Position numbers and translations under genes: made by a program
NCBI GenBank assembly: GCA_017438305.1
Contig: JAFRVX010000114.1
Coordinates: 2,602-66,601, forward strand
Reading direction: 5' to 3'
From: Lachnospiraceae bacterium
GTDB lineage: Bacteria > Bacillota > Clostridia > Lachnospirales > Lachnospiraceae
Length of the DNA stretch: 64,000 nucleotides
In this document: piece by piece, positions 12,422 through 59,464 of the stretch
Layout of the letters: every line of letters begins with the position of its first letter
Position numbering within the stretch: position 1 is the first letter of the stretch
Notes under the pieces: model-generated
Seen by the model: the letters and a program-made list of their open reading frames with translations, nothing else
Databases searched by the model: none
Told to the model about the DNA's origin: nothing

Positions 12422-14245
12422 TTGGAAACAGGTGAAATGCTGGATTTCTTACAGGATATCGATTCCATACAGCTGACAGATCTCTGCCGGGGAATATGTT
12501 CAAGGAGTATGATTTCCAAAGTAAAAAACGGAGAAAGAGAACTGAACTGTATCTGTTTCATTCAGATTATGAAGCGGCTGTTTGTTTCTCCGGACAGGTT
12601 TTTTGTCCTGTTGGACAGGCGTGGATATGCCTACCTGAAATGGCTTTTTGACTGCCAGCGGCTGATTGCTGCAGGAAATTATAGTGAACTGGAAAACTGC
12701 CTGTCTGCTCCGGTTCTTGAAGAGCTGTACAAGGCTTATCGGCTTGTGGTGAAGCACGATGAAGCTTTTTTCCGTTATGTTATCGAACGGGAGCTTCATC
12801 ATGATCTGGAAGCAGCCTATAGACAGATAAAAGAAGCTGTCGAATATATGCTTTTATTGGATGAGAGTGAAGCGCTTCTGCCAGGCCGTTACAGCACGGA
12901 AGAAATAAATCGTTATATGAATTACCTGGAACTGTCCGTTACTTTAGGTTACCGGTCAGCCATGACAGCAAAAGGAAGCTTTGACCAGCTTCTTCAGATG
13001 GCTTCCGTGTCTGAAAGAGATCCCCGCGAAGAAGCCCGACTGTACCCCCGGATCGTCTGCGGAACACTGTATGCCATAGGCAAAGTCTATCCGCCCGAAA
13101 TAAAGATGGGAATGATCACCCGGGCATTGGCAACACTCCGCAAAATCAGGGAATGCTTCGATATGGCACCCCTCCTTGCTCAGTTGGCAGACACAGCAGA
13201 AGAACTGAAGGCCCCGGAAACGAAACGCTGCTGCAACTGGCATAAGGCCATTACCCTATCCTATGAATTAGGTGGCATTTCTCCGGAATATAATCCTTAT
13301 GATTCCCATGATGTCAATCAGCAGCTGTATCGGATACATGAGTATCTGCTGCGGGGCCGCATGGCGGCTCAGGATAAAGCCGGCGGGAGAATGACCCAGG
13401 AGGATGCAAGCGCCGAGATCATGGAAGCAAGCAATTATTCCCGGATCGAGACGGGTTATTCCGACCCTTCAGATTACCATTTTCGCCGTCTTGCCACCCG
13501 TATGGGTCTTTCTTCCGAAAGGTATCAGGGAGAAATCACCACCCCGTACATCACGGATTTTTCTCTGGTTACGGAAGTGAGAAGGGCTATTCTTGAAGAT
13601 GATCCCGAACGTTTTGACCGGGCTTACGCGGTTCTTAATCATCATCTGGACCGCCATTATAAAGAAAACCGCCAGTTTCTCGACCAGGTCATAGTTAACA
13701 GGAGACTGTTGGCCGGCATGATCACTGAAGAAAAAGCCATTGAGGAGTGGATAGCTGCTTTAAATCATACGATTCCTTACCAGGCAGATGAAGTCCATGT
13801 TTATTCAGAGCTTGAAATAGAAACCATTTTTAAAATAGTTAGATCAAAACGCCGTCTGGGAATGATGAATGATAATGACATCAAAATACTGGAAAGCATT
13901 CTGGTCAGCGAACAATCCGTTTACAAATACATTTCATCCTGGAACCGGGTAGGGCTGGTTAAACGCCTTCTGGCAGGCATTTATCAGGTGGCGGGAAACA
14001 ATGAAAAGAGCATGGATCTTTGTTATCATTGCTTAAATGAAATGATGCAGGATCAGGATGCTTCATTATTAATTGAAATACTGGACATTCTTGCCGAAAA
14101 CATGGTCCATACATATCCTGTTAAATCAGAAAGGCTAATGCAGATCGCCTATTGGATAGGCGATCTATATCAGGAAGAAGGGAGCAAAAAAGCAATAAGT
14201 TCCCTTATCAAAAGATGCTTTTCGAAGCCAATTCAAGATTTATGA
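12422..14245 (+). CDS. large HTH transcriptional regulator with two Xre-like HTH segments plus helical repeat regions (RNPP/Rgg-like, tandem fusion)
   Basis: 607 aa with a TTG start 12 nt after AGGAGG. HTH-like LTDLCRGICSRSMISKVKNGERELN near residue 20. A second one, MTQEDASAEIMEASNYSRIETGYSDPSDYHFRRLATRMGL, near residues 324-363. Each is followed by a long alpha-helical-looking region. Confidence 0.6.
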   Translation: METGEMLDFLQDIDSIQLTDLCRGICSRSMISKVKNGERELNCICFIQIMKRLFVSPDRFFVLLDRRGYAYLKWLFDCQRLIAAGNYSELENCLSAPVLEELYKAYRLVVKHDEAFFRYVIERELHHDLEAAYRQIKEAVEYMLLLDESEALLPGRYSTEEINRYMNYLELSVTLGYRSAMTAKGSFDQLLQMASVSERDPREEARLYPRIVCGTLYAIGKVYPPEIKMGMITRALATLRKIRECFDMAPLLAQLADTAEELKAPETKRCCNWHKAITLSYELGGISPEYNPYDSHDVNQQLYRIHEYLLRGRMAAQDKAGGRMTQEDASAEIMEASNYSRIETGYSDPSDYHFRRLATRMGLSSERYQGEITTPYITDFSLVTEVRRAILEDDPERFDRAYAVLNHHLDRHYKENRQFLDQVIVNRRLLAGMITEEKAIEEWIAALNHTIPYQADEVHVYSELEIETIFKIVRSKRRLGMMNDNDIKILESILVSEQSVYKYISSWNRVGLVKRLLAGIYQVAGNNEKSMDLCYHCLNEMMQDQDASLLIEILDILAENMVHTYPVKSERLMQIAYWIGDLYQEEGSKKAISSLIKRCFSKPIQDL

Positions 14246-14410
14246 GTTTTTTCCTTTGGAAACGTCTATCTCTTCAACAATTATGATATCCGCCTGCAGT
14301 TCATCTGAAGTATTATGCAGCGGATAACTTATGATACCTGTTTTTACCGGTGAAAACAGGACTGCTGCAGAAAATATAAATGCCAGGATTCTCGTGAATA
14401 TAGCCATCAT
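14240..14410 (-). CDS. small exported peptide (56 aa), candidate signalling pro-peptide
   Basis: ATGATG start 6 nt after a perfect AAGGAGG. Sequence MMAIFTRILAFIFSAAVLFSPVKTGIISYPLHNTSDELQADIIIVEEIDVSKGKNS has a hydrophobic signal-like N-terminus and a polar/acidic C-terminus. Convergent with the regulator, and their 3' ends overlap. Confidence 0.55.
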   Translation of the reverse strand: MMAIFTRILAFIFSAAVLFSPVKTGIISYPLHNTSDELQADIIIVEEIDVSKGKNS

Positions 14411-14553
14411 TAGACGCCTCCTTACTTGTTGATAATTCAAGCGTAAGAGGTTTTCCCGAAAAGCTCCATGTCCTCACTGTCACGAGGTGTTGACTGAAAC
14501 AGCATGGACAATAGTTTTTTCATATGATAGCATTATGATGCGCGTAATAATAC

Positions 14554-14565
14554 GACTTATAAGTC
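14554..14565. promoter_or_regulatory. perfect 12-bp palindrome GACTTATAAGTC (candidate operator)
   Basis: Read directly. It lies in the divergent intergenic region between the 56-aa peptide gene and the 130-aa secreted-protein gene. Confidence 0.35.
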
Positions 14566-14663
14566 TTTAAAAGACAACTGACGAAGAGTTATACAGAGGC
14601 CGTTTTCAAAAAGAAAACAAAGATTACTCCCCTGTATCTAAATTGTCAAGAACGGAGGTATTG

Positions 14664-15056
14664 ATGAAAATTATCAGAAAAATAATCGCTGTTGCTGCTT
14701 TGATGGGTATTTTATTCGGTGTAACAGCGGCTGCAGATTCGCGTAGTTACTGGTTCCCATTCCCTTCATATGGTGTAGGCAGTATGTGCTACTCCGAACT
14801 GGTAAACCCTAAATCCACTTCAGCACCAAGTGTAAAATCCAGTGTGCAGGTCCATGGTACATGTTATTTCCTAAGCAGCAGCAGGACAGCTAGTGATCAG
14901 GATACCAACATAGTTACTATCCCCACCAACAGTCTGGCCAAATATCCATTTACCTGGACAGACAATTCTTCCTCATCCTACTACCTGATAGGTTATCCTG
15001 ATATTTATTCAGGTACATGGAGTGATTATACCGGAATAGGAACCTGGGTAAACTAA
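14664..15056 (+). CDS. small Sec-secreted protein, Ser/Thr/Tyr/Gly-rich (about 105-aa mature)
   Basis: GGAGG-5 nt-ATG. Signal peptide MKIIRKIIAVAALMGILFGVTAAA/DS. The mature part has 2 Cys and ends GTWSDYTGIGTWVN. No family recognised. Confidence 0.65.
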   Translation: MKIIRKIIAVAALMGILFGVTAAADSRSYWFPFPSYGVGSMCYSELVNPKSTSAPSVKSSVQVHGTCYFLSSSRTASDQDTNIVTIPTNSLAKYPFTWTDNSSSSYYLIGYPDIYSGTWSDYTGIGTWVN

Positions 15057-15083
15057 CCGAAGACATTCGCTGATCATACAAAG

Positions 15084-15137
15084 CTGACAGTATCGGCGGC
15101 AGAACAAGCTGCTGATACTGTCAGTAATTGTGTTTTC
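15084..15137 (+). terminator. strong hairpin / partial terminator after the secreted-protein gene
   Basis: 14-bp stem CTGACAGTATCGGC (15084-15097) / GCTGATACTGTCAG (15111-15124) with one G-T pair, followed by TAATTGTGTTTTC. Confidence 0.6.
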
Positions 15138-15185
15138 AATGGTTTTCGATAGTTTGAAGGCATTATCCTATAGAGGTCTTATTCT

Positions 15186-15956
15186 ATGTTAAGATCATTT
15201 TCAGTCCAGATAAAAAGAGCTCTGTCACCAAGACTGCTTCTGCTTTCTTTTGCTGCCGCAGCACTTCAGCTGCTGTCGGCGGCTCCCTTTATCAAAACCG
15301 ATCAGGTTTCTTCTGTCTGGTATGTCCTGTTCAACAGCCAGATGACCGGCATAAATTTCTTTACCATCTATATTCTCCCGGTAATGGTTTATGCCGTTAC
15401 GCTGGTAAAAGAATCGGAAACCCGCGCGTCGGATTATTATATCATCCGAACAGGCGTGGGGCGATACACGCTCTCTAAAATTCTGGCTTCCGCAACAGGT
15501 GGATATCTCCTGGTTTTTCTGGAATTATTGATTTGTATGACAGCGCTGAAAGCAGCCGGATTTCCATGGTATACCTTCAGATCCGATGGAACTCCCTATT
15601 CCGCAGCCATGGAGCAGGGGAAGGTCATTTATGGTTTTTTCATGTTCCTTCTGGACATGGGCTGGGGCGGGGCGGTTGTTTCCGTTTTTGGTCTGACCGT
15701 ATCGGTTTTCATTGAAAATTCACTGGCTGCTGCGGCAGCACCGCTGGCAGTGACCCTGTTTCTTTCCAGAGTCGTGGATCAGTTGAAGCTGCCTTTTGAT
15801 TTTAACCCCATGATGTGGATGAGATATGTGGATTACAGCGACCGGTTTACTGCCCTGGACGGAGTCCTGTATAAGTCAGCAGTCAGCCTGATCGTCATGA
15901 CGATACTCTCTGTTATAGGGATCAGGGGAATGAAGAGGAGGCAGGACCGTGCCTGA
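15186..15956 (+). CDS. ABC-2-type polytopic membrane protein (LanE/G-like)
   Basis: 256 aa with about 6 hydrophobic segments. Size and topology resemble lantibiotic-immunity permease subunits. No motif-level proof. Confidence 0.5.
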   Translation: MLRSFSVQIKRALSPRLLLLSFAAAALQLLSAAPFIKTDQVSSVWYVLFNSQMTGINFFTIYILPVMVYAVTLVKESETRASDYYIIRTGVGRYTLSKILASATGGYLLVFLELLICMTALKAAGFPWYTFRSDGTPYSAAMEQGKVIYGFFMFLLDMGWGGAVVSVFGLTVSVFIENSLAAAAAPLAVTLFLSRVVDQLKLPFDFNPMMWMRYVDYSDRFTALDGVLYKSAVSLIVMTILSVIGIRGMKRRQDRA

Positions 15957-16821
15957 AATAAGAAAAATACGGCGTCTGGTCTATATCAGTTTTGCCAGGC
16001 ATATCACTAACCGGAAGACGATTCTGATAGCGGGTATGGCCGTAATCTTTGCTTTTTATAATTATATGCCGCTGACCAGGCTGGCCATGTTTTACCATGA
16101 AAACATACCACCGGTGTCCTTTGTCTTTCACCTGAGTCATTATCTTGTGCTGTGCTTTCATGCAGCCGCATCTGTGCTTTTGTTTGCTGATGTGATGAAA
16201 GAAGATGGATTCACCCTGTGGACGGTTATCAGGAGCGGAAAGACGGAGTATATTCTGGCTCAAAGCCTGTATGTGCTGCTGATGTCAGCAGTTTACGTAC
16301 TTTTCCTTTATCTGCTCTCTCTGGTCTTCACCTTGCCCGTATTGGGTTCCATAAAGGAATGGGGCCCGTTTATGAAGCGGATGAGCCAGGATATGACGAG
16401 TCTTGTACAGGAGTCGGGAATCAGCGGCCATTCACTTTATGTTGCACCGGTGATTATCCGGCATTTTACACCGGCAGGTGCGCTGCTTTTTGCTTTTCTG
16501 ATCATGTGGCTGGATGTTTCTTTTACCGGGATGATGATACTTTTTTTCTCCTGCGTTATCAGCCGGTCCTTTGCCACAGCTTTTGGCGGTGTTTTGGTAT
16601 CCATAGCCATCTTTGCCACAGTTTCCGGCATGCTGCTCTTCGGAACCAGACTGCTTTACGCCTCTCCCATGTCCTGGAACAATATTAATAATATCGATTA
16701 TGACAGGAGCGGTGCGTACCCGTCTCCGGAATACGTTGTCACGTTTCTGACTGTGGGGATCATCATGTTTGCCGTAGGTTCCTATATCGGATACAGACAT
16801 AAAGAAGCCATAAAAGGATAA
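15949..16821 (+). CDS. ABC-2-type polytopic membrane protein (second subunit)
   Basis: 290 aa. GTG start 7 nt after GAGGAGG, overlapping the preceding stop. Multiple TM segments. Confidence 0.5.
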   Translation: MPEIRKIRRLVYISFARHITNRKTILIAGMAVIFAFYNYMPLTRLAMFYHENIPPVSFVFHLSHYLVLCFHAAASVLLFADVMKEDGFTLWTVIRSGKTEYILAQSLYVLLMSAVYVLFLYLLSLVFTLPVLGSIKEWGPFMKRMSQDMTSLVQESGISGHSLYVAPVIIRHFTPAGALLFAFLIMWLDVSFTGMMILFFSCVISRSFATAFGGVLVSIAIFATVSGMLLFGTRLLYASPMSWNNINNIDYDRSGAYPSPEYVVTFLTVGIIMFAVGSYIGYRHKEAIKG

Positions 16822-16902
16822 TAATGGGGCAGAACAGCCTGTCTGTTCCGCAGGTTACTCGCGGATCAGTCAGGAAAAAGCTGCCGGAGGTGATTAACGG
16901 TT

Positions 16903-18012
16903 ATGAAGAAGAGAATGATCGTGCTACTCCTGGTGATTACACTGGGAACCGTTTCTTGTGGAAAACAATCGCAGGAGACAACAGTTTCGGACGAAACGCC
17001 TTCTGTTGTATCCTCCGGACTTGTGACAGAGGCTGAGTTTCCTGAAGATTATCCGGAGAGTCTGGACACCTATCAGGCCTGTTTTTTTGAGCCTGATCTA
17101 GAAAAAGTCACCGCTGCTCTGATGCTCAATGACCCGGATGAGACCTTTATATCAGATTCCGGTGATTATCATGCGCTTTACGGGGAAGAAGAACATCTGG
17201 TAGTCAATACTAAGGACTGTATTATCGGTTATATCCGGACAGACGCTGAAACCGAAGAAGAACGGGAATTCAAAAAGCACGTCCGGGGACTGAAACCCAT
17301 GGCTACCGAATTCTATCGATTCGGGAATAATGCGGGTCTGAATCCGGGGCATGGGAAATTCAAGGATTTCGACCAGGAGGCAGTGCTTTCTTTTTCTTCA
17401 AAAAAAGAAGTGACAGAACGGTTTTTCAATCTTATAGAAAACGCAGGATTTCCGGAAATGGATGTCCGGTATGTCTATCCAAGGAATAAGGATATTCTGA
17501 CAGAGAACCTTAAAATATACAACGGGTTTTCTTCTATCGAAGAAAACCAATATGTCTTCACGGAAGAAGATGAAGATTATTATCTGATGGCGGTTCAGAA
17601 AATAAACGGTATTCCTCTGTGCTGTCATCGTTGGATCCTGGATCCCAGATCGGAATATCAAACGGATACCTATCTGGAGATGATTTATACAAAGGATTCC
17701 GGAGTTGATGAGATCAACGCCTGGCATTTATTCGACATAAAAGAAAAGACAGGGGTGAGAAAAATCCGCAGTCCCCTGGATGCGGTAAGGGAATATGAAA
17801 GGCTGTATGGCGAAAATGAATCCTTAAAGGGAACAACCCTCAGTTCGGTGGAACTGAATTATATTGTAACTCAGAAAGACGGAAACCTGACCGCGCTTCC
17901 CTGCTGGATACTGGTAATGTGGAAGGACCGTCAGTTATCCGAGGATGTAAGTATGAGACAGTATACGGTTATCGCCATAGATCCCGAGACCCTGGAGATT
18001 TATAACAAATGA
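16903..18012 (+). CDS. lipoprotein of unknown function
   Basis: 369 aa. MKKRMIVLLLVITLGTVSCGKQ carries a lipobox (LGTVS-C). SD is GGAGGTG. Confidence 0.6.
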   Translation: MKKRMIVLLLVITLGTVSCGKQSQETTVSDETPSVVSSGLVTEAEFPEDYPESLDTYQACFFEPDLEKVTAALMLNDPDETFISDSGDYHALYGEEEHLVVNTKDCIIGYIRTDAETEEEREFKKHVRGLKPMATEFYRFGNNAGLNPGHGKFKDFDQEAVLSFSSKKEVTERFFNLIENAGFPEMDVRYVYPRNKDILTENLKIYNGFSSIEENQYVFTEEDEDYYLMAVQKINGIPLCCHRWILDPRSEYQTDTYLEMIYTKDSGVDEINAWHLFDIKEKTGVRKIRSPLDAVREYERLYGENESLKGTTLSSVELNYIVTQKDGNLTALPCWILVMWKDRQLSEDVSMRQYTVIAIDPETLEIYNK

Positions 18013-18158
18013 TCTTAAAACAGATTTATATCATCAGGGTAAGATAGTTGCTGAAAACATGCAACTGTGTATCATTAGCCGGGGCAAACCCTTTTGACCC
18101 CGGCATCAGGCAAACAGCGGCTGTATCATGGAATCCATCCGGACAAAGGGACGATAAA

Positions 18159-18791
18159 ATGGCATATATAGAAATCAGGGAATTAGTGAAAGAATTCAAA
18201 GAAATCCGGGCACTGGACCAGGTTTCACTGTCCTTTGACCAGGGGCAGATACACGGCATCATAGGCCGGAACGGGTCCGGAAAGACCGTCATGCTGAAAT
18301 GCATCTGCGGCTTCATGAAGCCAACATCAGGGGAAATTCTGGTTGGGGGAAAGAAAATAGTTCCGGGAAAAAGACAGGCTATGGGCATTATCATAGAGGT
18401 CCCCGGTTTTATTGACCAGAAAAGCGGGCTGAAAAACCTTGAATATCTATATGGGCTGAATCACAGACCGGACAGAAACAAACTGAAGAAAACCATGGAA
18501 AAGGTCGGTCTGGACCCTGAAAACAAAAAGCCGGTGGGAAAGTATTCCCTGGGGATGAGACAGCGTCTGGCAATAGCACAGGCCATTATGGAAGAGCCGG
18601 AACTGCTGCTTCTGGACGAGCCCATGAACGGTCTGGACAATAAAGGCGTGGAAGATATCCGGGAGCTGCTGAAAAAACTGGCGAAAGAAGGAAAAACCAT
18701 CATTCTGGCTTCCCACAGCCGGGAGGACATTTCATTACTTTGCGATACCGTGACCGAACTGGATCATGGAAAGATAATCTTGACAGCCTGA
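18159..18791 (+). CDS. ABC transporter ATP-binding protein (ABC-2/LanF-like)
   Basis: Start taken at MAYIEIRELVKEF. Walker A GRNGSGKT, signature YSLGMRQR, Walker B LLLLDEP. Confidence 0.8.
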   Translation: MAYIEIRELVKEFKEIRALDQVSLSFDQGQIHGIIGRNGSGKTVMLKCICGFMKPTSGEILVGGKKIVPGKRQAMGIIIEVPGFIDQKSGLKNLEYLYGLNHRPDRNKLKKTMEKVGLDPENKKPVGKYSLGMRQRLAIAQAIMEEPELLLLDEPMNGLDNKGVEDIRELLKKLAKEGKTIILASHSREDISLLCDTVTELDHGKIILTA

Positions 18792-21920: not shown

Positions 21921-23035
21921 GTCTCTGTATAAGGCTGTTCCTGAAGATTTTCCTCGTTATGGAAGAACGGCACCCGTCTTCCCAGAAACAGTGCTGCTGC
22001 CGCAAATACCATAAACAGCACCGCGTAAATGAAAAGATACTTTTCCGGATCCAGGATCCCTCCCAGGAACATGCCCAGGAAATTATTGAACATGTGGCAG
22101 AGGATGCTGGGGATCACGGAATTATACTTATACCCGATAAAGCCCCACAGAAGGCCCATGGGAAGCACATAGATGCCCTGAATGGGATTCATATGGAAGA
22201 TGCTGAAAAGGACGCCGCTTATGATCACGCAGCCCGCCAGCCCGAAGACTCTTCTGGAACGTTGGAGGATGATCCCCCGCATGGCCAGTTCTTCACAGAT
22301 GGGCGCCAGAAGCACCGCCGCCAGAAGCCCCAGGATCTCGTTCTTTCCCAGGGTCAGGTACATGGTTTCATTTAAAGCTTCGGCCTCATACGGGAAGAGG
22401 CCCGCAGCGATGATCTCCAGCATGATGGCCAGAGAAAAACACGCAATATTCGAGGTCAGCAGGAAGAGAAGGCCTGCCGGGTTCTTAAGCTTTGGCCCCA
22501 CCGGTTCATACCGCCCTTCCAGTCTGGCCTTCCGCACATATCCGCGGTAATACCAGATCAGTACAAAAATGGTTCCTGCAACTACCGAAATGATCTCGAC
22601 CCGGGCCAGAAGGGAAGTCGATGTCAGCAGTTCATTATAGGCATTGATAATTGCTTCGTAGTCCCCGCCGTTTTCCATCACCAGCCGGAAAAGAGACGGC
22701 AGGATCCCCGCGGCGCCTGCCGCGGACTGCACCAGGATCACGGCAATCATCACCCAGACACAGAAGAAAACCGTCCCGATCTTTCCGGGCTGAGCCTTGT
22801 AGGCCTGCCGGTAAACCGCCCGGTCCGATACCTGCGGCTGGGGCGTATAAGTCCTGGCCGGCTCATCTGTCCTGTTTATCGTATAAGGGATCTGCGTTAC
22901 CTCTTCACGATCCGTTCCGGTTCCCGTATAAGGGATCTGAGACGCTTTTTCGCGATCCGTTCCGGTTCCCGTATAAGGGATCTGAGATACTTCTTCGCGA
23001 TCTGTTCCGGTTTCAGCGGGGCCATATTCACTCAT
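21914..23035 (-). CDS. CPBP-family intramembrane metalloprotease (CAAX/Abi type) with a repetitive N-terminus
   Basis: Start at MSEYGPAE (GGAGG-5 nt-ATG). CEELAMRG (EExxxR), FSIFH and HMFNN motifs. Three 15-aa repeats TGTDREEVSQIPYTG at the N-terminus. Confidence 0.75.
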   Translation of the reverse strand: MSEYGPAETGTDREEVSQIPYTGTGTDREKASQIPYTGTGTDREEVTQIPYTINRTDEPARTYTPQPQVSDRAVYRQAYKAQPGKIGTVFFCVWVMIAVILVQSAAGAAGILPSLFRLVMENGGDYEAIINAYNELLTSTSLLARVEIISVVAGTIFVLIWYYRGYVRKARLEGRYEPVGPKLKNPAGLLFLLTSNIACFSLAIMLEIIAAGLFPYEAEALNETMYLTLGKNEILGLLAAVLLAPICEELAMRGIILQRSRRVFGLAGCVIISGVLFSIFHMNPIQGIYVLPMGLLWGFIGYKYNSVIPSILCHMFNNFLGMFLGGILDPEKYLFIYAVLFMVFAAAALFLGRRVPFFHNEENLQEQPYTETW

Positions 23036-23085
23036 AAAAAACCTCCGAAGTCTGTTATGTTCTCTCATCATAACAGACTTCGGAG
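23036..23085 (-). terminator. rho-independent terminator whose 3' arm contains the SD of the CPBP gene
   Basis: 18-bp arms at 23068-23085 and 23041-23058 (CCTCCGAAGTCTGTTATG / CATAACAGACTTCGGAGG in mRNA sense) with a 9-nt loop. TTTTT follows, then ATG directly. Confidence 0.7.
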
Positions 23086-23244
23086 GGATGTGCAAGAATT
23101 ATCCGGCATCAGGTTAGTGTCAGCTCCGGATTTCCTCTCACCGGCGGTTCATTAATCCTTTACTCTTTGCCGGGCAGAAACGGCCGGATATCTTTATAGG
23201 GAATTAGCAGGTTCAATCGCGGAAGATATGTTTTATCTGTCTGT

Positions 23245-23880
23245 TTACAGACTGTCTAAGAGATTTCTGATGATCTCCAATGCCTGATTTACAGCAGCAT
23301 CTCTTTCTTCTGATGAAATAATAAGATTATTACTGCTTTTCTTGAAGTAATAGTTGATCACGTACTTGAGTTCTCCCTGTTTTATTGTTCCAAATAGAAT
23401 ATCAGGTTGTAACGGATCTTTTTCTATATAGGTAACACAATACTCCATAGTTTTATCATCAGCAGTAAGAAGTTCTTTCCCAAACCGGGTAATCAGATTG
23501 CTCGCCTGCTGATATTGTTCGTGAATATCATTAAAGTATATATCTACGGATATATTGTCCCCATTCTCCAGTCCGGCATACTCAGACAAATACAGCCATG
23601 TGTTTCTGTCTGACACATAACCGGTGCCATCCAGAGGAAGGAACAAGGTGAATTGAAGATTTTTCAATTCATCCTCATGTTTGATATACCATTGAATGAG
23701 GCAATCTTCTCCAAAAAGTCTCAGAGCTTTTTCAGGATCTTTTTCTGTATACTCAGATATATTTTCTGTAGGTGATGGACCATGTCTGTGAGAAGATTCA
23801 AACCAGATAACGCCAATTCCCAAACAGCCTGATACAACCAGTACAATTACCAGTATCGTAAGATTTTTTCTTTTATTCAT
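23245..23880 (-). CDS. lipoprotein / membrane-anchored protein of unknown function
   Basis: 211 aa. MNKRKNLTILVIVLVVSGC has a lipobox-like VSG-C. AT-rich coding sequence. Confidence 0.55.
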   Translation of the reverse strand: MNKRKNLTILVIVLVVSGCLGIGVIWFESSHRHGPSPTENISEYTEKDPEKALRLFGEDCLIQWYIKHEDELKNLQFTLFLPLDGTGYVSDRNTWLYLSEYAGLENGDNISVDIYFNDIHEQYQQASNLITRFGKELLTADDKTMEYCVTYIEKDPLQPDILFGTIKQGELKYVINYYFKKSSNNLIISSEERDAAVNQALEIIRNLLDSL

Positions 23881-23941
23881 ATTATAGTCCTTATTTATTT
23901 GCTATATCCTTGGTTTAGAGACTTCTGATTTGTTTTCTGGT

Positions 23942-25234
23942 TTAATCAGTTCCTTCCTCCTGCTCCTTTTCGGATGGGACTGCAAAGGACTGTATGAGCT
24001 CGCTTTCATCCCCGTACCAAAGGATCTTATAAGGACATTCCTTTCCATGAATACTTCCAATTTCCTTTTTATCAAAGATCAGAAGCCCCCACCGCTGACT
24101 TCCTTTTTCATTATAGACAACATATTGATAGTCTTTACCGCCTATCGGGATTTCCCATGCATATCCTATGTCCGGGATCTTATATTCATCCACAATGTTG
24201 AAGTCTGTATCGTAAACTACACATTTTCTTTCCCTCTCGGGGAATTCCCGGTTAATACTCGTGTTGTCAAGGTAAAAGTAATTCCCATCAGACAGGGGTG
24301 TATTATATTGTTCCACAGATGAAAGGACTGTTCCTTTTGATCCTCCGTAAACATCAGATTCATAGATCTCTGTCAGGTATATTGAGTTCTCCATTCCGTT
24401 CCGGGGCTCTCTGTATAGTTTTCCGTCAAATAATACAAGGTCATCAAACTCAAGGTCAGTTTTTTCTATTTCTCCTGTACGCATATTGTAGACCTGAGAT
24501 AATATGTTTGGCCCGTTTATCATTGTGAACCAGACATAATCACCCAGGGCCCGCAACGGGAGACATCCATGCTGTAAGCCGTCATAGTAGATTTCTTCTT
24601 CTGTCATGATTTTCTTTTCAAGGTCGATTCTGTTAAAACATGTTTTTGCTGCAATTCCCTCTTCTGAAGTAACAAACACCGAAGAATAATAGAACAGTGT
24701 ACCTCTATGAATTAGCGGAAACGCCATATCCACTGTTCTCCATATCATTTCTTTTGAAGAACCGTCCGTGGATACTTTGACGACACATGTTTTTCGGTTT
24801 TCAGGATCATTATCTAACCTATCATAACAGATATAAAGATCATCCTTATACAGCATCAGACTTATAGGAGCAAATCTCCCATTCTCATCATAAAAGGCAT
24901 AGTCAAGACAGGCATTACACTCCCGTTTCTTTTCAGGATCCCTTTCCTCATCATGAAGACAGTTTGCCTTTGAACAAAGAGGGATAATCGCACCTCCTTG
25001 CCTGTAAGTATATAAGAAATCATTATGAACAAAGATACAGCCTTCTTCAATCTCCTGGATTTTCGGGTAGATTAGATTCGGCGTCATCATATAACACTGC
25101 CAATCCGTTTCAAAGTTGTAGTCATCCTGAAAAACCATCTTTCTCTCCGTTGAAGAGGAGCTTTCGGTTGCTCCTGTAAAATCTTTACTGCTGCCGCATC
25201 CGGAGAAAAGGATGATTCCAAGTAAGAAAGCCAT
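23942..25234 (-). CDS. large lipoprotein, paralogue A (possible beta-propeller, DUF5050-like by eye)
   Basis: Start placed at MAFLLGIILFSGCGSS (lipobox); the track ORF extends to 25318 inside the upstream gene. Paralogous to 26647-27945. Confidence 0.6.
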   Translation of the reverse strand: MAFLLGIILFSGCGSSKDFTGATESSSSTERKMVFQDDYNFETDWQCYMMTPNLIYPKIQEIEEGCIFVHNDFLYTYRQGGAIIPLCSKANCLHDEERDPEKKRECNACLDYAFYDENGRFAPISLMLYKDDLYICYDRLDNDPENRKTCVVKVSTDGSSKEMIWRTVDMAFPLIHRGTLFYYSSVFVTSEEGIAAKTCFNRIDLEKKIMTEEEIYYDGLQHGCLPLRALGDYVWFTMINGPNILSQVYNMRTGEIEKTDLEFDDLVLFDGKLYREPRNGMENSIYLTEIYESDVYGGSKGTVLSSVEQYNTPLSDGNYFYLDNTSINREFPERERKCVVYDTDFNIVDEYKIPDIGYAWEIPIGGKDYQYVVYNEKGSQRWGLLIFDKKEIGSIHGKECPYKILWYGDESELIQSFAVPSEKEQEEGTD

Positions 25235-25265
25235 TCTCAAAGGGAATGTCCGGCTGAATAAGTGC

Positions 25266-25688
25266 TTAACCCTGAGAGCCACTGCTTGTTTCCCCTGTCC
25301 ATGTGCCTGCTGTTCCAATCACTTTATGTGTCGCAATGGAACCTGCGGCAGAGTAGGGATATGGAATAGATATTGTGACGCTGACCGGATCAATATCTAC
25401 CCCACTGTTTGTTGCAGGAGTATAGTTATACCTGAAAACATGACTGTCATAGGCTGCATAAGCAATTAAAGAAACCTCTTTAGTCGTATGAAGTTTGTGT
25501 TTCGTATTAGCGCTTACAGACGAAGGCGTATAACCGGTGGAACCTGATGCGTAGGAACCATCAATCATATACGACGACTGCACAAAACTCGCGGCATTCA
25601 CGGGGGTGGACGTAAATAATCCGGCTGCCATAATCACCGCACCGGCAATACCAGCTGTTTTCTTTATGAAACTTCTTATTCCTTCCAT
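25266..25688 (-). CDS. small Sec-secreted protein, paralogue A (140 aa)
   Basis: Signal peptide ...STPVNA/ASFVQ. The mature part is Ser/Thr/Tyr/Gly-rich. Paralogous to 27938-28360. Confidence 0.65.
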   Translation of the reverse strand: MEGIRSFIKKTAGIAGAVIMAAGLFTSTPVNAASFVQSSYMIDGSYASGSTGYTPSSVSANTKHKLHTTKEVSLIAYAAYDSHVFRYNYTPATNSGVDIDPVSVTISIPYPYSAAGSIATHKVIGTAGTWTGETSSGSQG

Positions 25689-25869
25689 ACCTAAAAACCC
25701 TTTTCTTCTTAAAGATACTGGTACGAATCAATTAAAACTTTCTAGATCGCCGTACTATACGACAGACTCTCTTTGACCTGTTACCAACCATTGTTAACAC
25801 AGAACAGATTATATGCAATTATTGAACTATTTGATAGACTCTGGTATTACCCTCCTTCTCAATGATGGA

Positions 25870-26529
25870 TTACTTCCCGTTAACTTCAACTTTTCCCCGG
25901 CATCGTTCTAAATATAAGTATTCAACTATCGGTTTGGACACCGGATCTGTATCTTCGGCATCGGCATCCGGTGACCAGGTCTGACTCTGACCTTCAACCA
26001 GGATCTCCGCCCTTACTCCTATAAATTCATCCGCACCTTCCGGAAGCTCTATCTCCAATAACACAGGTTCGAAAATATTCCTGCTTGTCACCGTCTGTTT
26101 CCTTACATAGTTATCCCCTTCTTTTGTATAATAACCATATATCGTTGCAACAGCAGTATCACTATATCCTATAAGAACCTGGCCGTGTTCTTCATAATGC
26201 GATGTGTCAGGCATATCTAGGATCACTTCCACAGATGCTTTATCACGTGACAAGTTTACCTCGCCTTCAATCCCCGGTACATGATCAGAATACCTGTTTT
26301 TTTTCTTAAGCTCCCCTGTAAACAATATATCCTCAGGCTCTGTATATTCTATAAATGGCTCCATGTTCAGCGAAGTTTTTGGAATGGTGGAAGAATCCCG
26401 TTTAGCATAATCAGAAATGACAATGAGCGCGCCGTTATTCTCCATGTTTCCGCAGCCTGATAACAGCATCGCTCCAAGCAAGAGGATAACTCCAATGTTA
26501 ATAAATATACTGTTCCTGTTTTTTTGCAT
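25870..26529 (-). CDS. lipoprotein of unknown function
   Basis: Start at MQKNRNSIFINIGVILLLGAMLLSGCGN (lipobox LLSG-C). 219 aa. Confidence 0.55.
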   Translation of the reverse strand: MQKNRNSIFINIGVILLLGAMLLSGCGNMENNGALIVISDYAKRDSSTIPKTSLNMEPFIEYTEPEDILFTGELKKKNRYSDHVPGIEGEVNLSRDKASVEVILDMPDTSHYEEHGQVLIGYSDTAVATIYGYYTKEGDNYVRKQTVTSRNIFEPVLLEIELPEGADEFIGVRAEILVEGQSQTWSPDADAEDTDPVSKPIVEYLYLERCRGKVEVNGK

Positions 26530-26646
26530 AACGGTCACTCTTTCCTCTGGGTGCACCCATACATCCGGCCAATTCCATTTATAACATTCTGGGAATACAC
26601 AGCAACTCGTGGAGTTATTGCTGCCTGTACCCTCCGTTCTCTGGTG

Positions 26647-27945
26647 TTAAGGCGCAGCGATGAATGCGGCAGGTTCTGTCTGATCATCACCATACCATAG
26701 GATTCTATAAGGACATTCCTTTCCCTGTATACTCCCGATCTCCTTTTTATCAAAGATCAGAAGCCCCCACCGTTCACTTTCCTTTTCATTATAGACAACA
26801 TATTGGAAGTCTTTCCCACCTATTGGGATTTCTCCCGAATAGCCTATGTCCGGGATCTTATATTCGTCTACTTTCCTGAAACCTGTATCGTAAACCGTGC
26901 ATTTCCTTTCCCTTTCGGGAAATTCCTGGTTAATCAGTGAATTGTCAAGATAGAAATAATGACCGTCCGATAAAGGCGTATTATACTGCTCTACGGATGA
27001 AAGCACGGTTCCTTTTGATCCTCCGTATACATCAGACTCATAGATCTCTGTCAGGTATATCGAGTTCTCCAGCCCGTTCCGGGGTTCTCTGTACAGTTTT
27101 CCGTTAAACAACATCAGCGCATCAAACCCAAGTTCGGTTTTTTCTATCTCTCCTGTACGAATATTATAGACCTGCGACAATGTGTCTGTCCCGTTTATCA
27201 TCGTAAACCAGACATAATCTCCCAGAGCCCGGAGCGGAAGACTTCCATGCTGCACTCCATCATAGAACAATTCTTCTTTGGAGAGTTTTTTCTTTTCAAG
27301 ATCGATTTTGTTAAAACTGATCTTTCCCGCCACATTTTCTTCTGTTGCCGTAAAGGCAACGTCATAATAATATAGAGCTCCTCGGTGGATCAAAGGAAAA
27401 TGCATTTTGTTCTCTCTCAGTATCACTTCCTTTGACGTTCCGTCCAATGATAGTTTTATGACACAGACATTTCTTCCTTCAGGATCGTTATCCATAATAT
27501 CATAACAAACATAAAGATCATCTTTATCAAGCATCAGTTTTCCTGAATATGACCCGACCTCATCATCATAGAAGGCATAGTCCAGCCAGGCATTGCACTC
27601 CCGTTTCTTCTCAGGATCGTTTTCCTGATCGTGAAGACAGTTCACTTTTGAGCAGAGCGGCATAATTGTGCCCCCCTGTTTATAAGTATAGATAAAATCA
27701 TTGTGTACAAAAACACATCCTCCATCTGTCTCCTGCATTCTCGCACTCATGACGTAAGGGGTAGTCATGTAATACTGCCAGTCCGTGCCAAAATGATAAT
27801 TATCATGAAAATCCTCCTTTTTTTCCAGTACCGTGGATTCATAACTTATCGTACCCTCCTCATCGGAGCATCCGCTGAGCAATATTATAAGAAAAAAACA
27901 TAGGAACCGGAAGACAGCAGACCAGGATAAATTATGCTTAATCAT
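26647..27945 (-). CDS. large lipoprotein, paralogue B
   Basis: Start at MIKHNLSWSAVFRFLCFFLIILLSGCSDEE. This ATG overlaps the upstream stop (ATGATTAA). Confidence 0.65.
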   Translation of the reverse strand: MIKHNLSWSAVFRFLCFFLIILLSGCSDEEGTISYESTVLEKKEDFHDNYHFGTDWQYYMTTPYVMSARMQETDGGCVFVHNDFIYTYKQGGTIMPLCSKVNCLHDQENDPEKKRECNAWLDYAFYDDEVGSYSGKLMLDKDDLYVCYDIMDNDPEGRNVCVIKLSLDGTSKEVILRENKMHFPLIHRGALYYYDVAFTATEENVAGKISFNKIDLEKKKLSKEELFYDGVQHGSLPLRALGDYVWFTMINGTDTLSQVYNIRTGEIEKTELGFDALMLFNGKLYREPRNGLENSIYLTEIYESDVYGGSKGTVLSSVEQYNTPLSDGHYFYLDNSLINQEFPERERKCTVYDTGFRKVDEYKIPDIGYSGEIPIGGKDFQYVVYNEKESERWGLLIFDKKEIGSIQGKECPYRILWYGDDQTEPAAFIAAP

Positions 27946-28360
27946 AGTGGCCGCTGAAAGTTGAACCGCTCCATACACCGGTCGTTCCGGTTACTTTATG
28001 TGTTGCTTTTGATCCTGCTCCATAATAAGGAGATGGTATGGAAACAGATACACTAACAGGATCGAGATCTACTGCGCTTCCCGTAACAGGTGTACTATTG
28101 TACTGAAAATAGTATCCCGAATAACTGGCATATGCCGTCAAAGACACTTCCTTTGTCGTATGCAGTTTGTGTTTTGTGTTGGCACTCACCGATGATGATG
28201 TGTAACCGGTAGATCCTGATGCATAGGCACCATCAATCATATATGCTGACTGTACAAAACTTGCGGCATTCACCGGGGTGGACGATATAAACCCGACTGC
28301 CATGATCACCGCACCGGCAATACCGGCTGCTTTTTTTATATAGTTTCTTTTTCTTTTCAT
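27938..28360 (-). CDS. small Sec-secreted protein, paralogue B (140 aa)
   Basis: Start at MKRKRNYIKKAAG, preceded by AAAGGAGAAA. Signal peptide ...STPVNA/ASFVQ. Confidence 0.7.
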   Translation of the reverse strand: MKRKRNYIKKAAGIAGAVIMAVGFISSTPVNAASFVQSAYMIDGAYASGSTGYTSSSVSANTKHKLHTTKEVSLTAYASYSGYYFQYNSTPVTGSAVDLDPVSVSVSIPSPYYGAGSKATHKVTGTTGVWSGSTFSGHYD

Positions 28361-28415: not shown

Positions 28416-28445
28416 ATTATAAACATCACCCATAAACAGTGTCAA
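28416..28445 (-). promoter_or_regulatory. sigma-A type promoter TTGACA-N18-TATAAT for the secreted-protein/lipoprotein operon
   Basis: Minus-strand reading GCGTATTGACACTGTTTATGGGTGATGTTTATAATACAGG. The -35 is at 28440-28445 and the -10 at 28416-28421. Confidence 0.65.
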
Positions 28446-28450
28446 TACGC

Positions 28451-28519
28451 TTCACTTATTCAACGTTTTTTTCACTTATTCGACATTTTCCACATAGATA
28501 ACGCGTCAGATAAGTGAAA
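28451..28519. promoter_or_regulatory. three copies of TTCACTTAT(T/C) (two direct, 20-bp period; one inverted): candidate LytTR boxes
   Basis: TTCACTTATTCAAC at 28451-28464. TTCACTTATTCGAC at 28471-28484. The inverted copy GATAAGTGAAAA at 28508-28519 sits directly upstream of TTGCAG-N17-TATCCT, which faces the response-regulator gene. Confidence 0.5.
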
Positions 28520-28597: not shown

Positions 28598-29332
28598 ATG
28601 AAAATAGCCTTTTGTGATGATGAAGTGATGAATTTCAGGGATTTTCAGCACTCCGTTGAACTTTACAATAAAAAAAACTCCGCCGGAGCAGAGGTTACTT
28701 ATTTTCCCGAAGGCTCACAGCTAAGAGAAGTGCTGGATAAAGGCTCGCGGTACGATGTCTACTTCCTGGATATTGTGATGCCGGATCCGAACGGATATCA
28801 GCTTGCGGAAAGCATACGGAAGCTCGGGATCGAGGCTCCGATCATATTTATAAGCCAGTATGACATCTATGATAAAAAAAGAGAGAGCCTGAAAATCTTC
28901 CGTTTTATCTCCAAACCCATAAATTCAAGAGAGCTCTTTTCGTGTCTTGATCACATAAACAGGGAAGCAGAGAATAAACTGAAAACCATTTCTGTAAGAT
29001 ACCGTCCGGCAAAAGGCGAGGACTTTACGAAAACCGTCATTCCTTTATCCGAAATCACCCATGCCATGTATTATTACCATCAGATCACTTTGTTTACCGA
29101 GCATAATGCATATGTTTTTTCGAGCAGGGAAAGCTTTAAAGAATATCTTGAAAATGATCTTGATAACAGCCTTATCCAGTGCAGTCAGAGCGAAGCCGTG
29201 AATCCGGATCATATCCTTAAGTATACAAAAAGCCGCATTTTCATGAAAGACGGGCATTCAATACTGATCACACGCTCTTTCAGGCAGACGGCTTTTTCGA
29301 AGATTCAGCTTTATTTTTCCGGAGATTATTAA
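28598..29332 (+). CDS. LytTR-family response regulator (AgrA/ComE-like)
   Basis: 244 aa. Receiver domain (CDDE, YFLDIVMPD, ISKP) plus a C-terminal LytTR-like DNA-binding domain. Confidence 0.75.
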   Translation: MKIAFCDDEVMNFRDFQHSVELYNKKNSAGAEVTYFPEGSQLREVLDKGSRYDVYFLDIVMPDPNGYQLAESIRKLGIEAPIIFISQYDIYDKKRESLKIFRFISKPINSRELFSCLDHINREAENKLKTISVRYRPAKGEDFTKTVIPLSEITHAMYYYHQITLFTEHNAYVFSSRESFKEYLENDLDNSLIQCSQSEAVNPDHILKYTKSRIFMKDGHSILITRSFRQTAFSKIQLYFSGDY

Positions 29333-29364
29333 GCGATTATTACGCGATTGATTGGAGATTGATT

Positions 29365-30657
29365 ATGGATGTTTTACTGGACTGCTGCATGAGTCTTTTT
29401 ATGAGCCTTCTGACGGTTTATTATCTTAATAAGGTCTTTAAAGATCCCCGGTTTGAAAGCCCCTCTGCCCTATTCTTTGAAACGGCAGGATATGCCGTAT
29501 TACTGTTCCTGAGTTTCAGGTTTTACAGGGTATTATCGGGCATCCCGGGTTTTTTGCTTATGCTCCTTCCTGTCTTTCTTTTTATTCTGCTTCTTTTTAA
29601 CGATCCGATCCGGAAGAAGCTTCCTCATCTTTTGTACTGGCTTTTCATTTGTATAAGCCTCTATTATTTAATGCCTCATCTTTTTGCAGCTGCTGCAGGA
29701 AAAAGCCTGCAGCAGGATAACGGCAGGGAAATGCAGATCATCTTCCTGTTTCTTGATAATCTGCTGTTTCTGGTATTCATTTCGGCCGGCATTATGTTTT
29801 CCGACAAAGAAAAGCGTCATACCGGAACCAATGCTGTCCTGCTTTCCACTAACCTTTTCTGTATCGGGATCATCCTTTTTGTGATCAGAACTGCAGCAGA
29901 AAGGCAGGAAGCGTTAAGCACAACCGCCATGATATCCATTGTGCTTTCCCTTATCCTTTCCGGTATTTTCCTGGTTCTTTTCTACCTGATACGGGAAGAA
30001 GATGCAGAGGCCCGGAAAATGGCTGTTATCCATAATCATCTTGAAACACAGGAAAAACAGAATGCGGAAACAGATTCTCTTTTCCGGTCTTTCCAGATGC
30101 TTAAACACAATATGAATCATTATGTAAAGAGCATATCGTCCTATGTAAATAATAATGACATGGCTGGCGTACAGCATGAGTTAAACAGGCTTTCCAAAGA
30201 GACAGAAACTGCAAATGCTCTCATAAGCGGCTGTTCAGAGGTTGATGCAGCGGTTTACTTAAAGACCCTTGAATTCAAAAAAGAAGGGATCCCCTTTACC
30301 TGTCATCTTTGTGACCTTTCGAAGATCCCCATAACGCCTTTTGAACTTAATTCAATTATAATTAACCTTCTGGACAACGCAAAAAGGGCCGTATCTGACC
30401 CGGAGGTATCCGATCCCTATGTGGATTTCAGGATAAACCGTATGGAACAGATGCTTATTGTCCAATGCTCCAACACGCTTTCCGAAAAGCAGCTGGAACA
30501 TCTTAACGGACCGGATCCTTTAAAGAAAGCTATAACGGAAAACGGCCTGGGGCTGAAAGTTATACGGCATATAGCAGACCGGTATGATGCTGTCTTTACC
30601 GTAAACCTGGTCCGTGATTGTTTTCACGCAGTGGTATCTTTCGAATATCCGGATTGA
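29365..30657 (+). CDS. AgrC-like GHKL sensor histidine kinase (polytopic N-terminus)
   Basis: ATG at 29365 follows GGAG. About 6 TM segments, H-box region FQMLKHNMNHY, N-box NLLDNAKRA, G-box GLGLKVIRHIADRY. Confidence 0.75.
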   Translation: MDVLLDCCMSLFMSLLTVYYLNKVFKDPRFESPSALFFETAGYAVLLFLSFRFYRVLSGIPGFLLMLLPVFLFILLLFNDPIRKKLPHLLYWLFICISLYYLMPHLFAAAAGKSLQQDNGREMQIIFLFLDNLLFLVFISAGIMFSDKEKRHTGTNAVLLSTNLFCIGIILFVIRTAAERQEALSTTAMISIVLSLILSGIFLVLFYLIREEDAEARKMAVIHNHLETQEKQNAETDSLFRSFQMLKHNMNHYVKSISSYVNNNDMAGVQHELNRLSKETETANALISGCSEVDAAVYLKTLEFKKEGIPFTCHLCDLSKIPITPFELNSIIINLLDNAKRAVSDPEVSDPYVDFRINRMEQMLIVQCSNTLSEKQLEHLNGPDPLKKAITENGLGLKVIRHIADRYDAVFTVNLVRDCFHAVVSFEYPD

Positions 30658-59275: not shown

Positions 59276-59333
59276 TAGTCGCCAAAAGTAGATTCCGGAT
59301 GGTTCCGTGCTTCGCACTCCCACCATCCTCCCT

Positions 59334-59464
59334 CATTCTGCACTCTCGTGGAGTAAAAACTCCACTTCGTGCTTCATGAGGGGCACGCCAAGAAGTCTTT
59401 CCTCCACTGGAATGTAAACATTCCGTGGAGTCCGACTTTTGGCGTTGGAATCATATTAAGATAA
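59334..59464. repeat. about 130-nt structured intergenic element, copy B
   Basis: Contains hairpins GTGGAG-TAAAAA-CTCCAC and CTCCAC(T)GGAATG-TAAA-CATTCC-GTGGAG, plus an enclosing GCCAAGAAGTC / GACTTTTGGC pairing. Confidence 0.7.

Follow-up and report, generated by a model that had tools for sequence, protein, structure and literature searches.

Lactococcin 972 and mediterrocin are Sec-dependent, unmodified beta-sandwich bacteriocins that are encoded together with a membrane immunity protein and an ATP-binding cassette (ABC) ATPase (PMC12345188). The cluster of mediterrocin, an 89-aa protein of a gut Lachnospiraceae species, encodes an ABC protein and a membrane protein with a putative role in immunity (PMC12345188). 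Here we analyze a low-GC locus, island B, within a 64-kb stretch of DNA from a Lachnospiraceae bacterium (contig JAFRVX010000114.1 of assembly GCA_017438305.1; this whole stretch is hereafter the window, and positions refer to it unless another locus is named). We show that island B is a 7.5-kb cassette gained horizontally, in which an orphan sensor pair of the AgrC/AgrA type is transcribed divergently from a six-gene operon, and that it belongs, in reduced form, to a widespread type of agr-linked cassette in which an ABC exporter is normally included. The operon carries two copies of a module that is composed of a gene for a small secreted protein, the domain of which we denote D, and a gene for a large lipoprotein, denoted P. 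We found no description of this cassette in the literature.

The low-GC block extends from approximately 23200 to approximately 30700 and takes in the six-gene operon along with the response regulator and histidine kinase genes. Its GC content is 0.413, compared with 0.536 for the rest of the window, and every 1-kb segment of the island has a lower GC content than the lowest of the 49 1-kb segments outside it. The GC content at third codon positions ranges from 0.33 to 0.47 in the island genes and from 0.64 to 0.71 in the flanking genes. The initial annotation of this region, which described an AT-richer island, is thus borne out by measurement, including the low GC of the operon, but not in the limits of the island: the two-component genes, taken to be its neighbors, lie inside the low-GC block. 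The gene for a CPBP protease on the other side is outside the block, as originally described, but does not appear to be a member of the unit. Given its host-like composition and its position behind the strong terminator of the operon, the CPBP gene probably does not belong to the cassette, and a CPBP neighbor was seen in just one other locus, where this gene adjoins P and ABC genes (L028). The N-terminus of the CPBP protease (22800-23030) contains a threefold repeat, TGTDRE(E/K)(V/A)(S/T)QIPYT..., ahead of the membrane domain. No relatives of the cassette proteins were found in viral contigs or in plasmids, so that a phage or plasmid origin is unsupported. A search of the window for tRNAs found none, and its sole Rfam match is the Clostridiales-1 small RNA (RF01699, 97.7 bits) at 59290-59453 on the minus strand.

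The full cassette is present in a human-gut lineage (for example, locus L044), where agrA, agrC and agrB are encoded on one strand, and agrD, D, P, a permease with 12 transmembrane segments and an ABC ATPase on the other. Here, agrD forms one transcription unit with D and P, downstream of which are the genes for the permease, which is of the ABC-2 type, and the ATPase. A 55-aa open reading frame (ORF) of L044 was identified as AgrD by TIGR04223 (32 bits, against a cut-off of 19), and the AgrB match in L011 has an E-value of 1.8e-29. The small proteins of the gut cassettes and those of the window are related in profile-profile comparison (probability 92%, E = 6.7e-7, 101 columns), and the kinase and the regulator of the window are just 22-25% identical to their gut-cassette counterparts.

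More broadly, relatives of P detected in genome and metagenome scans come only from Clostridia of the gut and rumen, most of them uncultured; 48 metagenome loci of the cassette were obtained in one scan. In the related loci, P is followed by a permease (~630-830 aa, ~12 transmembrane segments) and then by an ABC ATPase, often with a two-component system upstream of P. For the ATPases of the P loci, the best-scoring models are those of DrrA, GldA and lantibiotic protection, with all scores short of the model cut-offs (158 and 149 bits for TIGR03740, the model of lantibiotic protection, which requires 310). Some of the P-permease-ATPase loci contain OmpR-type two-component genes and no D. The arrangement can be elaborated, with five tandem P paralogs upstream of one permease and ATPase in L017 (5461-11662), and with P and permease genes alternating twice in L014. 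The operon region of island B encodes no polytopic membrane protein or ABC protein, and the entire segment 23200-30700 lacks any ABC component. The D-P module is wired to three peptide-signal circuits, namely, agrBDCA in the gut lineage, the orphan agrCA in the window, and a double helix-turn-helix (HTH) regulator with a small putative pro-peptide gene in L005 and L006. In the latter two loci, the module comes after the gene for a 607-aa double-HTH regulator, which is 39% identical (E = 3e-154) to a regulator encoded in the other low-GC island of the window.

Comparison of the gut-lineage loci revealed recurrent loss of agrD and D. The spacer between agrB and P is 862-866 bp long where agrD and D are intact (at least 11 loci), 461-467 bp where only remnants of both are left, 406 bp where D is partial and agrD absent, and 202 bp where both are absent; in a further, 374-bp variant, agrB, agrD and D are all missing, and a spacer of ~2710 bp carries an insertion. 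Altogether, this lineage shows at least four distinct deletions and one insertion that eliminate or disrupt agrD and D. Wherever the contig of a deletion-variant locus extends far enough, P is full length (437-438 aa), and so are the permease (631 aa) and the ATPase (290 aa). A few low-coverage or long-read contigs of the lineage contain fragmented genes, possibly due to sequencing errors. A deletion also occurs among strains of the window's own species: contigs L002 and L003 join position 28143 to 27945, which eliminates 197 bp and cuts small protein B to 73 aa, with large lipoprotein B intact. Two further contigs, L001 and L004, have a breakpoint at precisely 27945.

D also stands out in its sequence divergence. 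Between L033 and L053, D is 82% identical, whereas P, the permease, the ATPase and the kinase are 97-100% identical, and in otherwise near-identical cassettes, D reaches a synonymous divergence (dS) of 0.39-0.49 and the adjacent P one of 0.027, a difference of ~15-fold, which indicates that old D alleles were swapped in by recombination. The kinases show a pattern of their own: those of L035 and L061 are only ~67% identical to those of L033 and L044, with the remaining cassette at 97-100%, and D is identical in L044 and L035. The kinase groups look like agr specificity groups that are exchanged by recombination.

The sensor pair of the window conforms to its original designation as an AgrCA-like two-component system, given that the regulator combines Response_reg and LytTR domains, and the kinase combines six transmembrane segments with a HATPase_c_5 domain (Table 1). 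No relative of agrB or agrD was detected in the six-frame translation of the window, and the pair is therefore an orphan, which would have to sense a peptide from another source. Upstream of the operon promoter are two 19-nt direct repeats of the sequence TTCACTTATTC(A/G)AC(G/A)TTTT, which are spaced 20 bp start to start and end 5 bp before the -35 element. Repeats abutting the -35 element represent the layout of LytTR-activated promoters, and we propose these repeats as the binding sites of the LytTR regulator. The 14-nt core of the repeats, with up to 2 mismatches allowed, occurs in the whole 64 kb only here and in a third, inverted copy that faces the regulator gene and is a possible autoregulation site. 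These LytTR-style repeats, located at the -35 element and unique in the window, make up the sequence evidence for co-regulation of the operon with the adjacent two-component system, which had been envisaged from the gene context.

The six minus-strand genes of the operon (23245-28360) are all present as placed in the initial annotation, as are the perfect TTGACA-18-TATAAT promoter and the terminator. The latter, originally placed at 23036-23085, is real, with an 18-bp perfect stem followed by U6; a simple scan overlooked it because its loop is 9 nt long. The 3' arm of this hairpin holds the GGAGG Shine-Dalgarno sequence of the CPBP gene (23030-23090, minus strand; 7 nt before the ATG at 23035), so that the hairpin could mask CPBP translation on read-through transcripts. 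From the promoter onward, the genes encode free D, P and tethered D, then a second free D and P, and lastly the unrelated, tethered 211-aa protein; the small and large genes overlap or abut each other. The ATG of large lipoprotein B at 27945 overlaps the stop codon of small protein B (ATGATTAA) and is the most likely start, giving a protein of 432 aa, compared with 443 aa in the mechanical ORF list.

The assignment of signal peptides and lipoboxes (LLSGC, LFSGC, VNA|AS) is based on inspection of the sequence alone. Sec or lipoprotein signals had been assigned to all six products, and all six are indeed predicted to be extracytoplasmic; the lipoprotein status of the 211-aa protein, however, is questionable because its hydrophobic stretch runs on past the Cys, such that it could be a signal anchor instead. 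This protein has no matching family in Pfam or NCBIfam and no solved relative, and it is confined to contigs of the window's own species. Homology between the 219-aa and 211-aa proteins was considered and rejected, as the two sequences are unrelated to each other.

Table 1. Features of island B, with positions in the window.
Feature	Positions	Strand	Properties
Intrinsic operon terminator	23036-23086	-	18-bp perfect stem and U6; -31.1 kcal/mol, z -7.65
211-aa membrane-tethered protein	23245-23880	-	Last operon gene; one N-terminal hydrophobic segment
Large lipoprotein A	23942-25234	-	P domain; 430 aa from ATG at 25234; alternative GTG start at 25282
Small secreted protein A	25266-25688	-	D domain; 140 aa; 73% identical to B
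219-aa lipoprotein	25870-26529	-	Membrane-tethered D-domain copy; lipobox LLSGC
Large lipoprotein B	26647-27945	-	P domain; 432 aa from ATG; lipobox LLSGC
Small secreted protein B	27938-28360	-	D domain; 140 aa; Sec signal ending VNA|AS; 108-aa mature form
Deleted segment, 197 bp	27946-28142	-	Absent in some same-species strains (contigs L002 and L003)
Sigma-70 promoter of the operon	28416-28445	-	TTGACA, 18 nt, TATAAT; 12/12 consensus matches; best site of the region
Two 19-nt direct repeats	28451-28489		Proposed LytTR regulator binding sites; repeat period 20 bp; 5 bp between repeats and -35
Third, inverted repeat-core copy	28505-28518		2 mismatches; faces the regulator gene; possible autoregulation site
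AgrA-type response regulator	28598-29332	+	Response_reg 1.3e-13, LytTR 8.4e-7; divergent from the operon; low GC
AgrC-type histidine kinase	29359-30657	+	HATPase_c_5 (GHKL) 3.6e-11; six transmembrane segments by hydropathy

No family could be named for the six operon proteins in the initial annotation, and none of them has a significant match in Pfam, NCBIfam or PHROG, the small and large proteins A and B included; in particular, profile searches of these databases placed none of them in a known housekeeping envelope family. Searches of PDB sequences with single operon proteins and with profiles detected no solved relative. The two small proteins share 73% identity (E = 8e-71), somewhat more than the two-thirds estimated by eye. 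Structure prediction for the small protein alone, which had been suggested as a check, yielded an AlphaFold2 (AF2) model of a closed 9-strand beta-sandwich of ~105 aa with very high confidence (pLDDT 95.8). Two features of lactococcin 972-type proteins, a Sec signal (K/R-rich N-terminus, hydrophobic core, VNA|AS) and a small all-beta protein, are both present judging from the sequence and the model, respectively. Neither small protein, however, matches Lactococcin_972 (Pfam) or TIGR01653 (NCBIfam) at E<=1. The only match of the D profile among PDB sequences is a nanobody (E = 0.38), and Foldseek searches of PDB and viral models with the D model retrieved only generic Ig-like sandwiches, all weak, including CsgC and RbmA; 2LGN, the solved structure of the lactococcin 972 family, is not among the top 50 matches. 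A word-index search of 5.8 billion proteins found 9 relatives of the small protein and 10 of the large one. In the eight free D copies, Ser, Thr, Gly, Ala and Tyr account for 50-64% of the residues, and an HxxH motif and conserved His and Tyr residues are found in most of the free D proteins. The isoelectric points of free D lie in the neutral to basic range (6.4-9.2), whereas those of P and tethered D are strongly acidic (4.5-4.7).

Large lipoproteins A and B are 67% identical over their full length (E = 0.0), and the comparison supports the original impression that their C-terminal halves are the more similar ones. The AF2 model of P is all-beta (pLDDT 76.8), and Foldseek matches it to the propellers of TolB, prolyl-oligopeptidase and acylaminoacyl-peptidase with probability 1.0, at TM-scores of just 0.3-0.47. 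The original description of these proteins as DUF5050-like holds for the predicted propeller fold but not for family membership: the window proteins do not match DUF5050 (PF16472) even at E<=1, and 2 of the 10 distant P relatives scanned score 24.0 and 21.9 bits, below the cut-off of 27. C109, C114, H116 and C128 of P are invariant in a 10-sequence alignment (Cys-x4-Cys-x-His...Cys), and a matching motif is present in 129 of the 145 P-family members; this looks like a zinc knuckle. An exhaustive search with the P profile yielded 1231 cluster representatives at E<=0.001, of which 193 reached E<=1e-30.

The 219-aa lipoprotein had been listed as one of two further lipoproteins of the operon; instead, it consists of the same domain as the small secreted proteins, a domain that is fused to P in relatives. 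The C-terminal extension of large-protein relatives of 550-945 aa aligns with the 219-aa lipoprotein, indicating that the 219-aa gene corresponds to a domain of the large protein that has been split off. The match of this lipoprotein to the C-terminal-domain hidden Markov model (HMM) has an E-value of 4.5e-62, with the 219-aa sequence itself included in the HMM. The homology between free and tethered D rests on a pair in L005, in which free D and the C-terminal domain of the adjacent P are 32% identical over 105 residues (E = 4e-16), and on the matches of the free-D and C-terminal-domain HMMs to each other (1.7e-13 and 1.2e-6). When the profiles of free D and of the C-terminal domains were compared directly, the p-value was 0.0012, which by itself is only suggestive. 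A joint alignment of the small proteins with the C-terminal domains, including the 219-aa lipoprotein, contains four common blocks, and the His residues of free D are not conserved in tethered D.

D is located at the C-terminus of 14 P-family representatives, with two copies in P0004. In P0023 (945 aa), a BlaR1-type M56 sensor-protease domain (residues 8-307) is fused to P and D (D at 769-934), which suggests that P-D would bind an extracellular ligand, and in P0154, P is fused to a solute-binding-protein domain. In the loci that could be judged, no permease gene follows P where tethered D is present, either fused or separate (the window, L006 and L010), and one does follow P where D is missing.

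The two modules in the single operon, already recognized as a duplication in the initial annotation, are ancient paralogs held by purifying selection. Synonymous sites are saturated between modules A and B (proportion of synonymous differences 0.62-0.69), and the ratio of nonsynonymous to synonymous divergence (dN/dS) was estimated at 0.10 between the small genes and 0.16 between the large ones. In the large proteins, residues 295-334 are 97% identical, and the DNA that encodes them is just 83% identical, which points to strong constraint on the protein. Recent duplication or gene conversion between the modules was rejected on the basis of the synonymous saturation and the divergence of DNA in this stretch.

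A second low-GC island of the window (12422-18791, GC 0.45) encodes, besides the 607-aa double-HTH regulator mentioned above, a secreted protein of the Sec type (137 aa, 14643-15056), a lipoprotein of 369 aa, two polytopic membrane proteins and an ABC ATPase for which lantibiotic protection is the best model. The layout is similar to that of the lactococcin 972 and mediterrocin clusters, with no family match. Directly after the double-HTH regulators are small convergent ORFs (14240-14440 in the window and 2031-2198 in L006, both on the minus strand) with hydrophobic N-termini and similar C-termini (...IIIVEEIDVSKGKNS and ...QINEVEIPPTKGID, respectively); these may be pro-pheromones of an RRNPP-like circuit. 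An ORF of 72-105 aa between the two D-P modules of L005 (2705-3022) resembles only the C-terminal end of the double-HTH regulator and may be a remnant or a small stand-alone domain.

Our preferred interpretation, which we advance tentatively and would rate as slightly short of probable, is that D is a quorum-induced, Sec-exported antagonistic protein and that P provides self-protection, aided by tethered D in island B and by the ABC exporter elsewhere. The kinase would sense, at high cell density, a peptide made elsewhere, and the LytTR regulator would then turn on the operon. Free D would leave the cell via Sec and hit competitor cells as an unmodified protein bacteriocin, and P on the surface of the producer would capture or block D, sparing the producer, with the tethered D acting as a decoy in the window cassette and the ABC exporter assisting P in other lineages. 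The two diverged modules would correspond to two specificities. In support of this interpretation, we count the three circuits, the tight D-P coupling, the exporter-type ABC partners, the foreign composition, the ancient, exchangeable D alleles and the repeated loss of producer genes from loci that keep P and the ABC exporter. The difference in charge between free D and the acidic P and tethered D, the BlaR1 fusion and the precedent of mediterrocin also speak for it. The comparative data, namely, the gut agr cassettes and their deletion variants, likewise favor the context of peptide-pheromone-controlled antagonism that was originally suggested for the locus. A more far-reaching proposition, which is doubtful at this stage, is that the cassettes define a new class of protein bacteriocins of gut and rumen Clostridia, with an 11-kDa Sec-exported beta-sandwich toxin, immunity conferred by a zinc-knuckle P together with an ABC exporter or a tethered toxin homolog serving as a decoy, control by three pheromone circuits, and a mix of producer and immune-only strains.

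Several considerations weigh against an antagonistic role. All functional assignments are read from gene context, and family, PDB and Foldseek searches detected no relationship of D with lactococcin 972 or with other known bacteriocins. A toxin homologous to a part of its own immunity protein would be unusual, and the small proteins of the window itself are neutral, not cationic. The perfect -35 and -10 elements could make the promoter constitutive rather than activator-dependent. The dN/dS values are low throughout, for D and P alike, and hence there is no codon-level sign of an arms race. Many P-permease-ATPase loci contain no D, so that P has a D-independent role, and loss of a secreted product with retention of its partner is also expected of a shared public good.

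The alternatives differ in the role that they assign to free D. Density-controlled surface assembly without killing, in which free D would dock onto tethered D and P to form a layer, an adhesin or a matrix, similar to the homologous secreted and anchored subunits of fibers or biofilm scaffolds, is unlikely but deserves consideration: the same beta-sandwich domain occurs free and tethered, every product is extracytoplasmic, the Ser/Thr/Gly/Ala/Tyr-rich composition of the free D copies fits, and CsgC and the biofilm scaffold RbmA are among the weak fold matches of D. Moreover, matrix proteins are commonly under quorum control. The D model, however, is a complete closed sandwich, with no strand missing for donor-strand assembly, the ABC-2 exporter that accompanies P in most relatives would have no obvious role, and the repeated loss of D with P and the exporter retained would leave a useless anchor. 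We consider it distinctly unlikely that the cassette is a resistance or sensing module, in which P with the ABC exporter or tethered D removes a foreign antimicrobial and free D is a secreted decoy. The D-less P-permease-ATPase loci with OmpR-type two-component genes do resemble peptide-antibiotic detoxification modules, the ATPases score with the lantibiotic-protection and DrrA models (below the cut-offs), and the BlaR1-P-D fusion would suit a sensor of an outside compound. Against this stands the behavior of D itself, which in the gut lineage is co-transcribed with agrD and hence tied to the cell's own density signal, is represented by ancient, recombination-swapped alleles typical of self/non-self factors, and is the first gene to be lost in natural variants.

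That producer genes are lost and the receptor is kept would also fit public-good cheating in a ligand-capture relay, where free D takes up a scarce metal, heme or glycan and passes it to tethered D and P in a NEAT-like manner. The occurrence of homologous free and tethered beta-sandwich domains, the conserved His/Tyr residues and HxxH motif of most free D proteins, and the fusion of one P-family member to a solute-binding-protein domain are compatible with such a relay. We nevertheless judge it very unlikely because the ABC partner is of the exporter type (ABC-2/DrrA) and lacks a solute-binding protein, the His residues are not conserved in tethered D, control is by peptide pheromones and not by nutrient-responsive regulators, and the island of the window has no transporter. 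Finally, P could be an ordinary housekeeping envelope lipoprotein, duplicated by chance next to unrelated regulators. The size of the P family, with its 1231 cluster representatives, and the frequent occurrence of P without D or agr genes speak for this explanation. The foreign composition, the extreme rarity of close relatives (the 10 and 9 matches among 5.8 billion proteins), the presence/absence polymorphism, the repeats at the promoter and the recurrent linkage to pheromone circuits in independent lineages make it exceedingly improbable.

Whatever the function of the cassette, it adds two new domain families, a gene-fusion link between them, and a clear agr-type output regulon in commensal Clostridia. 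Cassettes of this family occur commonly in Clostridia of the human gut and the rumen, and of their components, only the agr genes and the ABC ATPase match described families. If D is indeed an antagonistic protein and P its immunity partner, the cassette would add a type of protein bacteriocin and immunity to the few known in strict gut anaerobes, and the gut lineage would be a natural human-gut example of production lost with immunity retained. It would also provide a rare case of a tethered copy of a secreted factor apparently replacing an ABC exporter.

Among described systems, that of lactococcin 972 and mediterrocin is matched in several respects. Mediterrocin provides a validated example, from gut Lachnospiraceae, of a bacteriocin that is Sec-dependent and unmodified and has a beta-sandwich fold (PMC12345188). 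The first gene of the cassette encodes a small Sec-exported, unmodified all-beta protein, as predicted here from sequence and model, and is followed by genes for envelope proteins, which in the relatives of the cassette include a polytopic membrane protein and an ABC ATPase; the setting, gut Clostridia with foreign-looking DNA and an adjoining transcription regulator, is also shared. Unlike the lactococcin 972 systems, the cassette has a secreted protein without sequence or fold match to that family, lacks a DUF1430 protein with 7 transmembrane segments (the permease of the relatives has ~12 and does not match DUF1430), and includes, in addition, a lipoprotein with a predicted propeller fold and a membrane-tethered version of the secreted domain; in the window island, any ABC component is missing. 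LanI and LanFEG offer a second parallel, in that a gene for a surface lipoprotein adjoins an ABC-2 exporter and a two-component system in most P-family loci, although not in the window, and the ATPases of the P loci score with TIGR03740, below the cut-off. P, however, is a predicted propeller without similarity to LanI, the permease is a single fused protein with 12 transmembrane segments, in contrast to LanFEG, and the presumed agent is a folded 11-kDa protein and not a modified peptide as in lantibiotic systems.

NEAT-domain proteins relay heme from the secreted IsdX1 to IsdC, with one type of beta-sandwich domain occurring both secreted free and surface-anchored. D, similarly found free and tethered in the same locus, is comparable by analogy only: there is no sequence relation, the ABC partner is of the exporter type, and regulation is by pheromone and not by iron. 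DUF5050 proteins of Clostridia and Bacteroides, which have no known function, are similar to P in that P is a predicted beta-propeller of ~400 aa and often a lipoprotein, but the P family has a Cys/His knuckle of its own, and P of the window fails to reach E<=1 with PF16472. With the staphylococcal agr system (agrBDCA, psm genes and the Pmt exporter), the window shares an AgrC-type kinase, a LytTR regulator and paired direct repeats beside the -35 element, and the gut lineage shares the co-transcription of agrD with a secreted product and the retention of an ABC exporter by producers. The differences are the absence of agrB and agrD in the window, the repeat spacing of 20 bp compared with 21-22 bp, and cassette products that are unrelated to phenol-soluble modulins. 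In the window cassette, a tethered copy of the secreted domain appears to replace the transporter. Overall, the logic of the cassette is familiar, that of lactococcin 972/mediterrocin and LanI-LanFEG placed under agr control, and its protein families are new.

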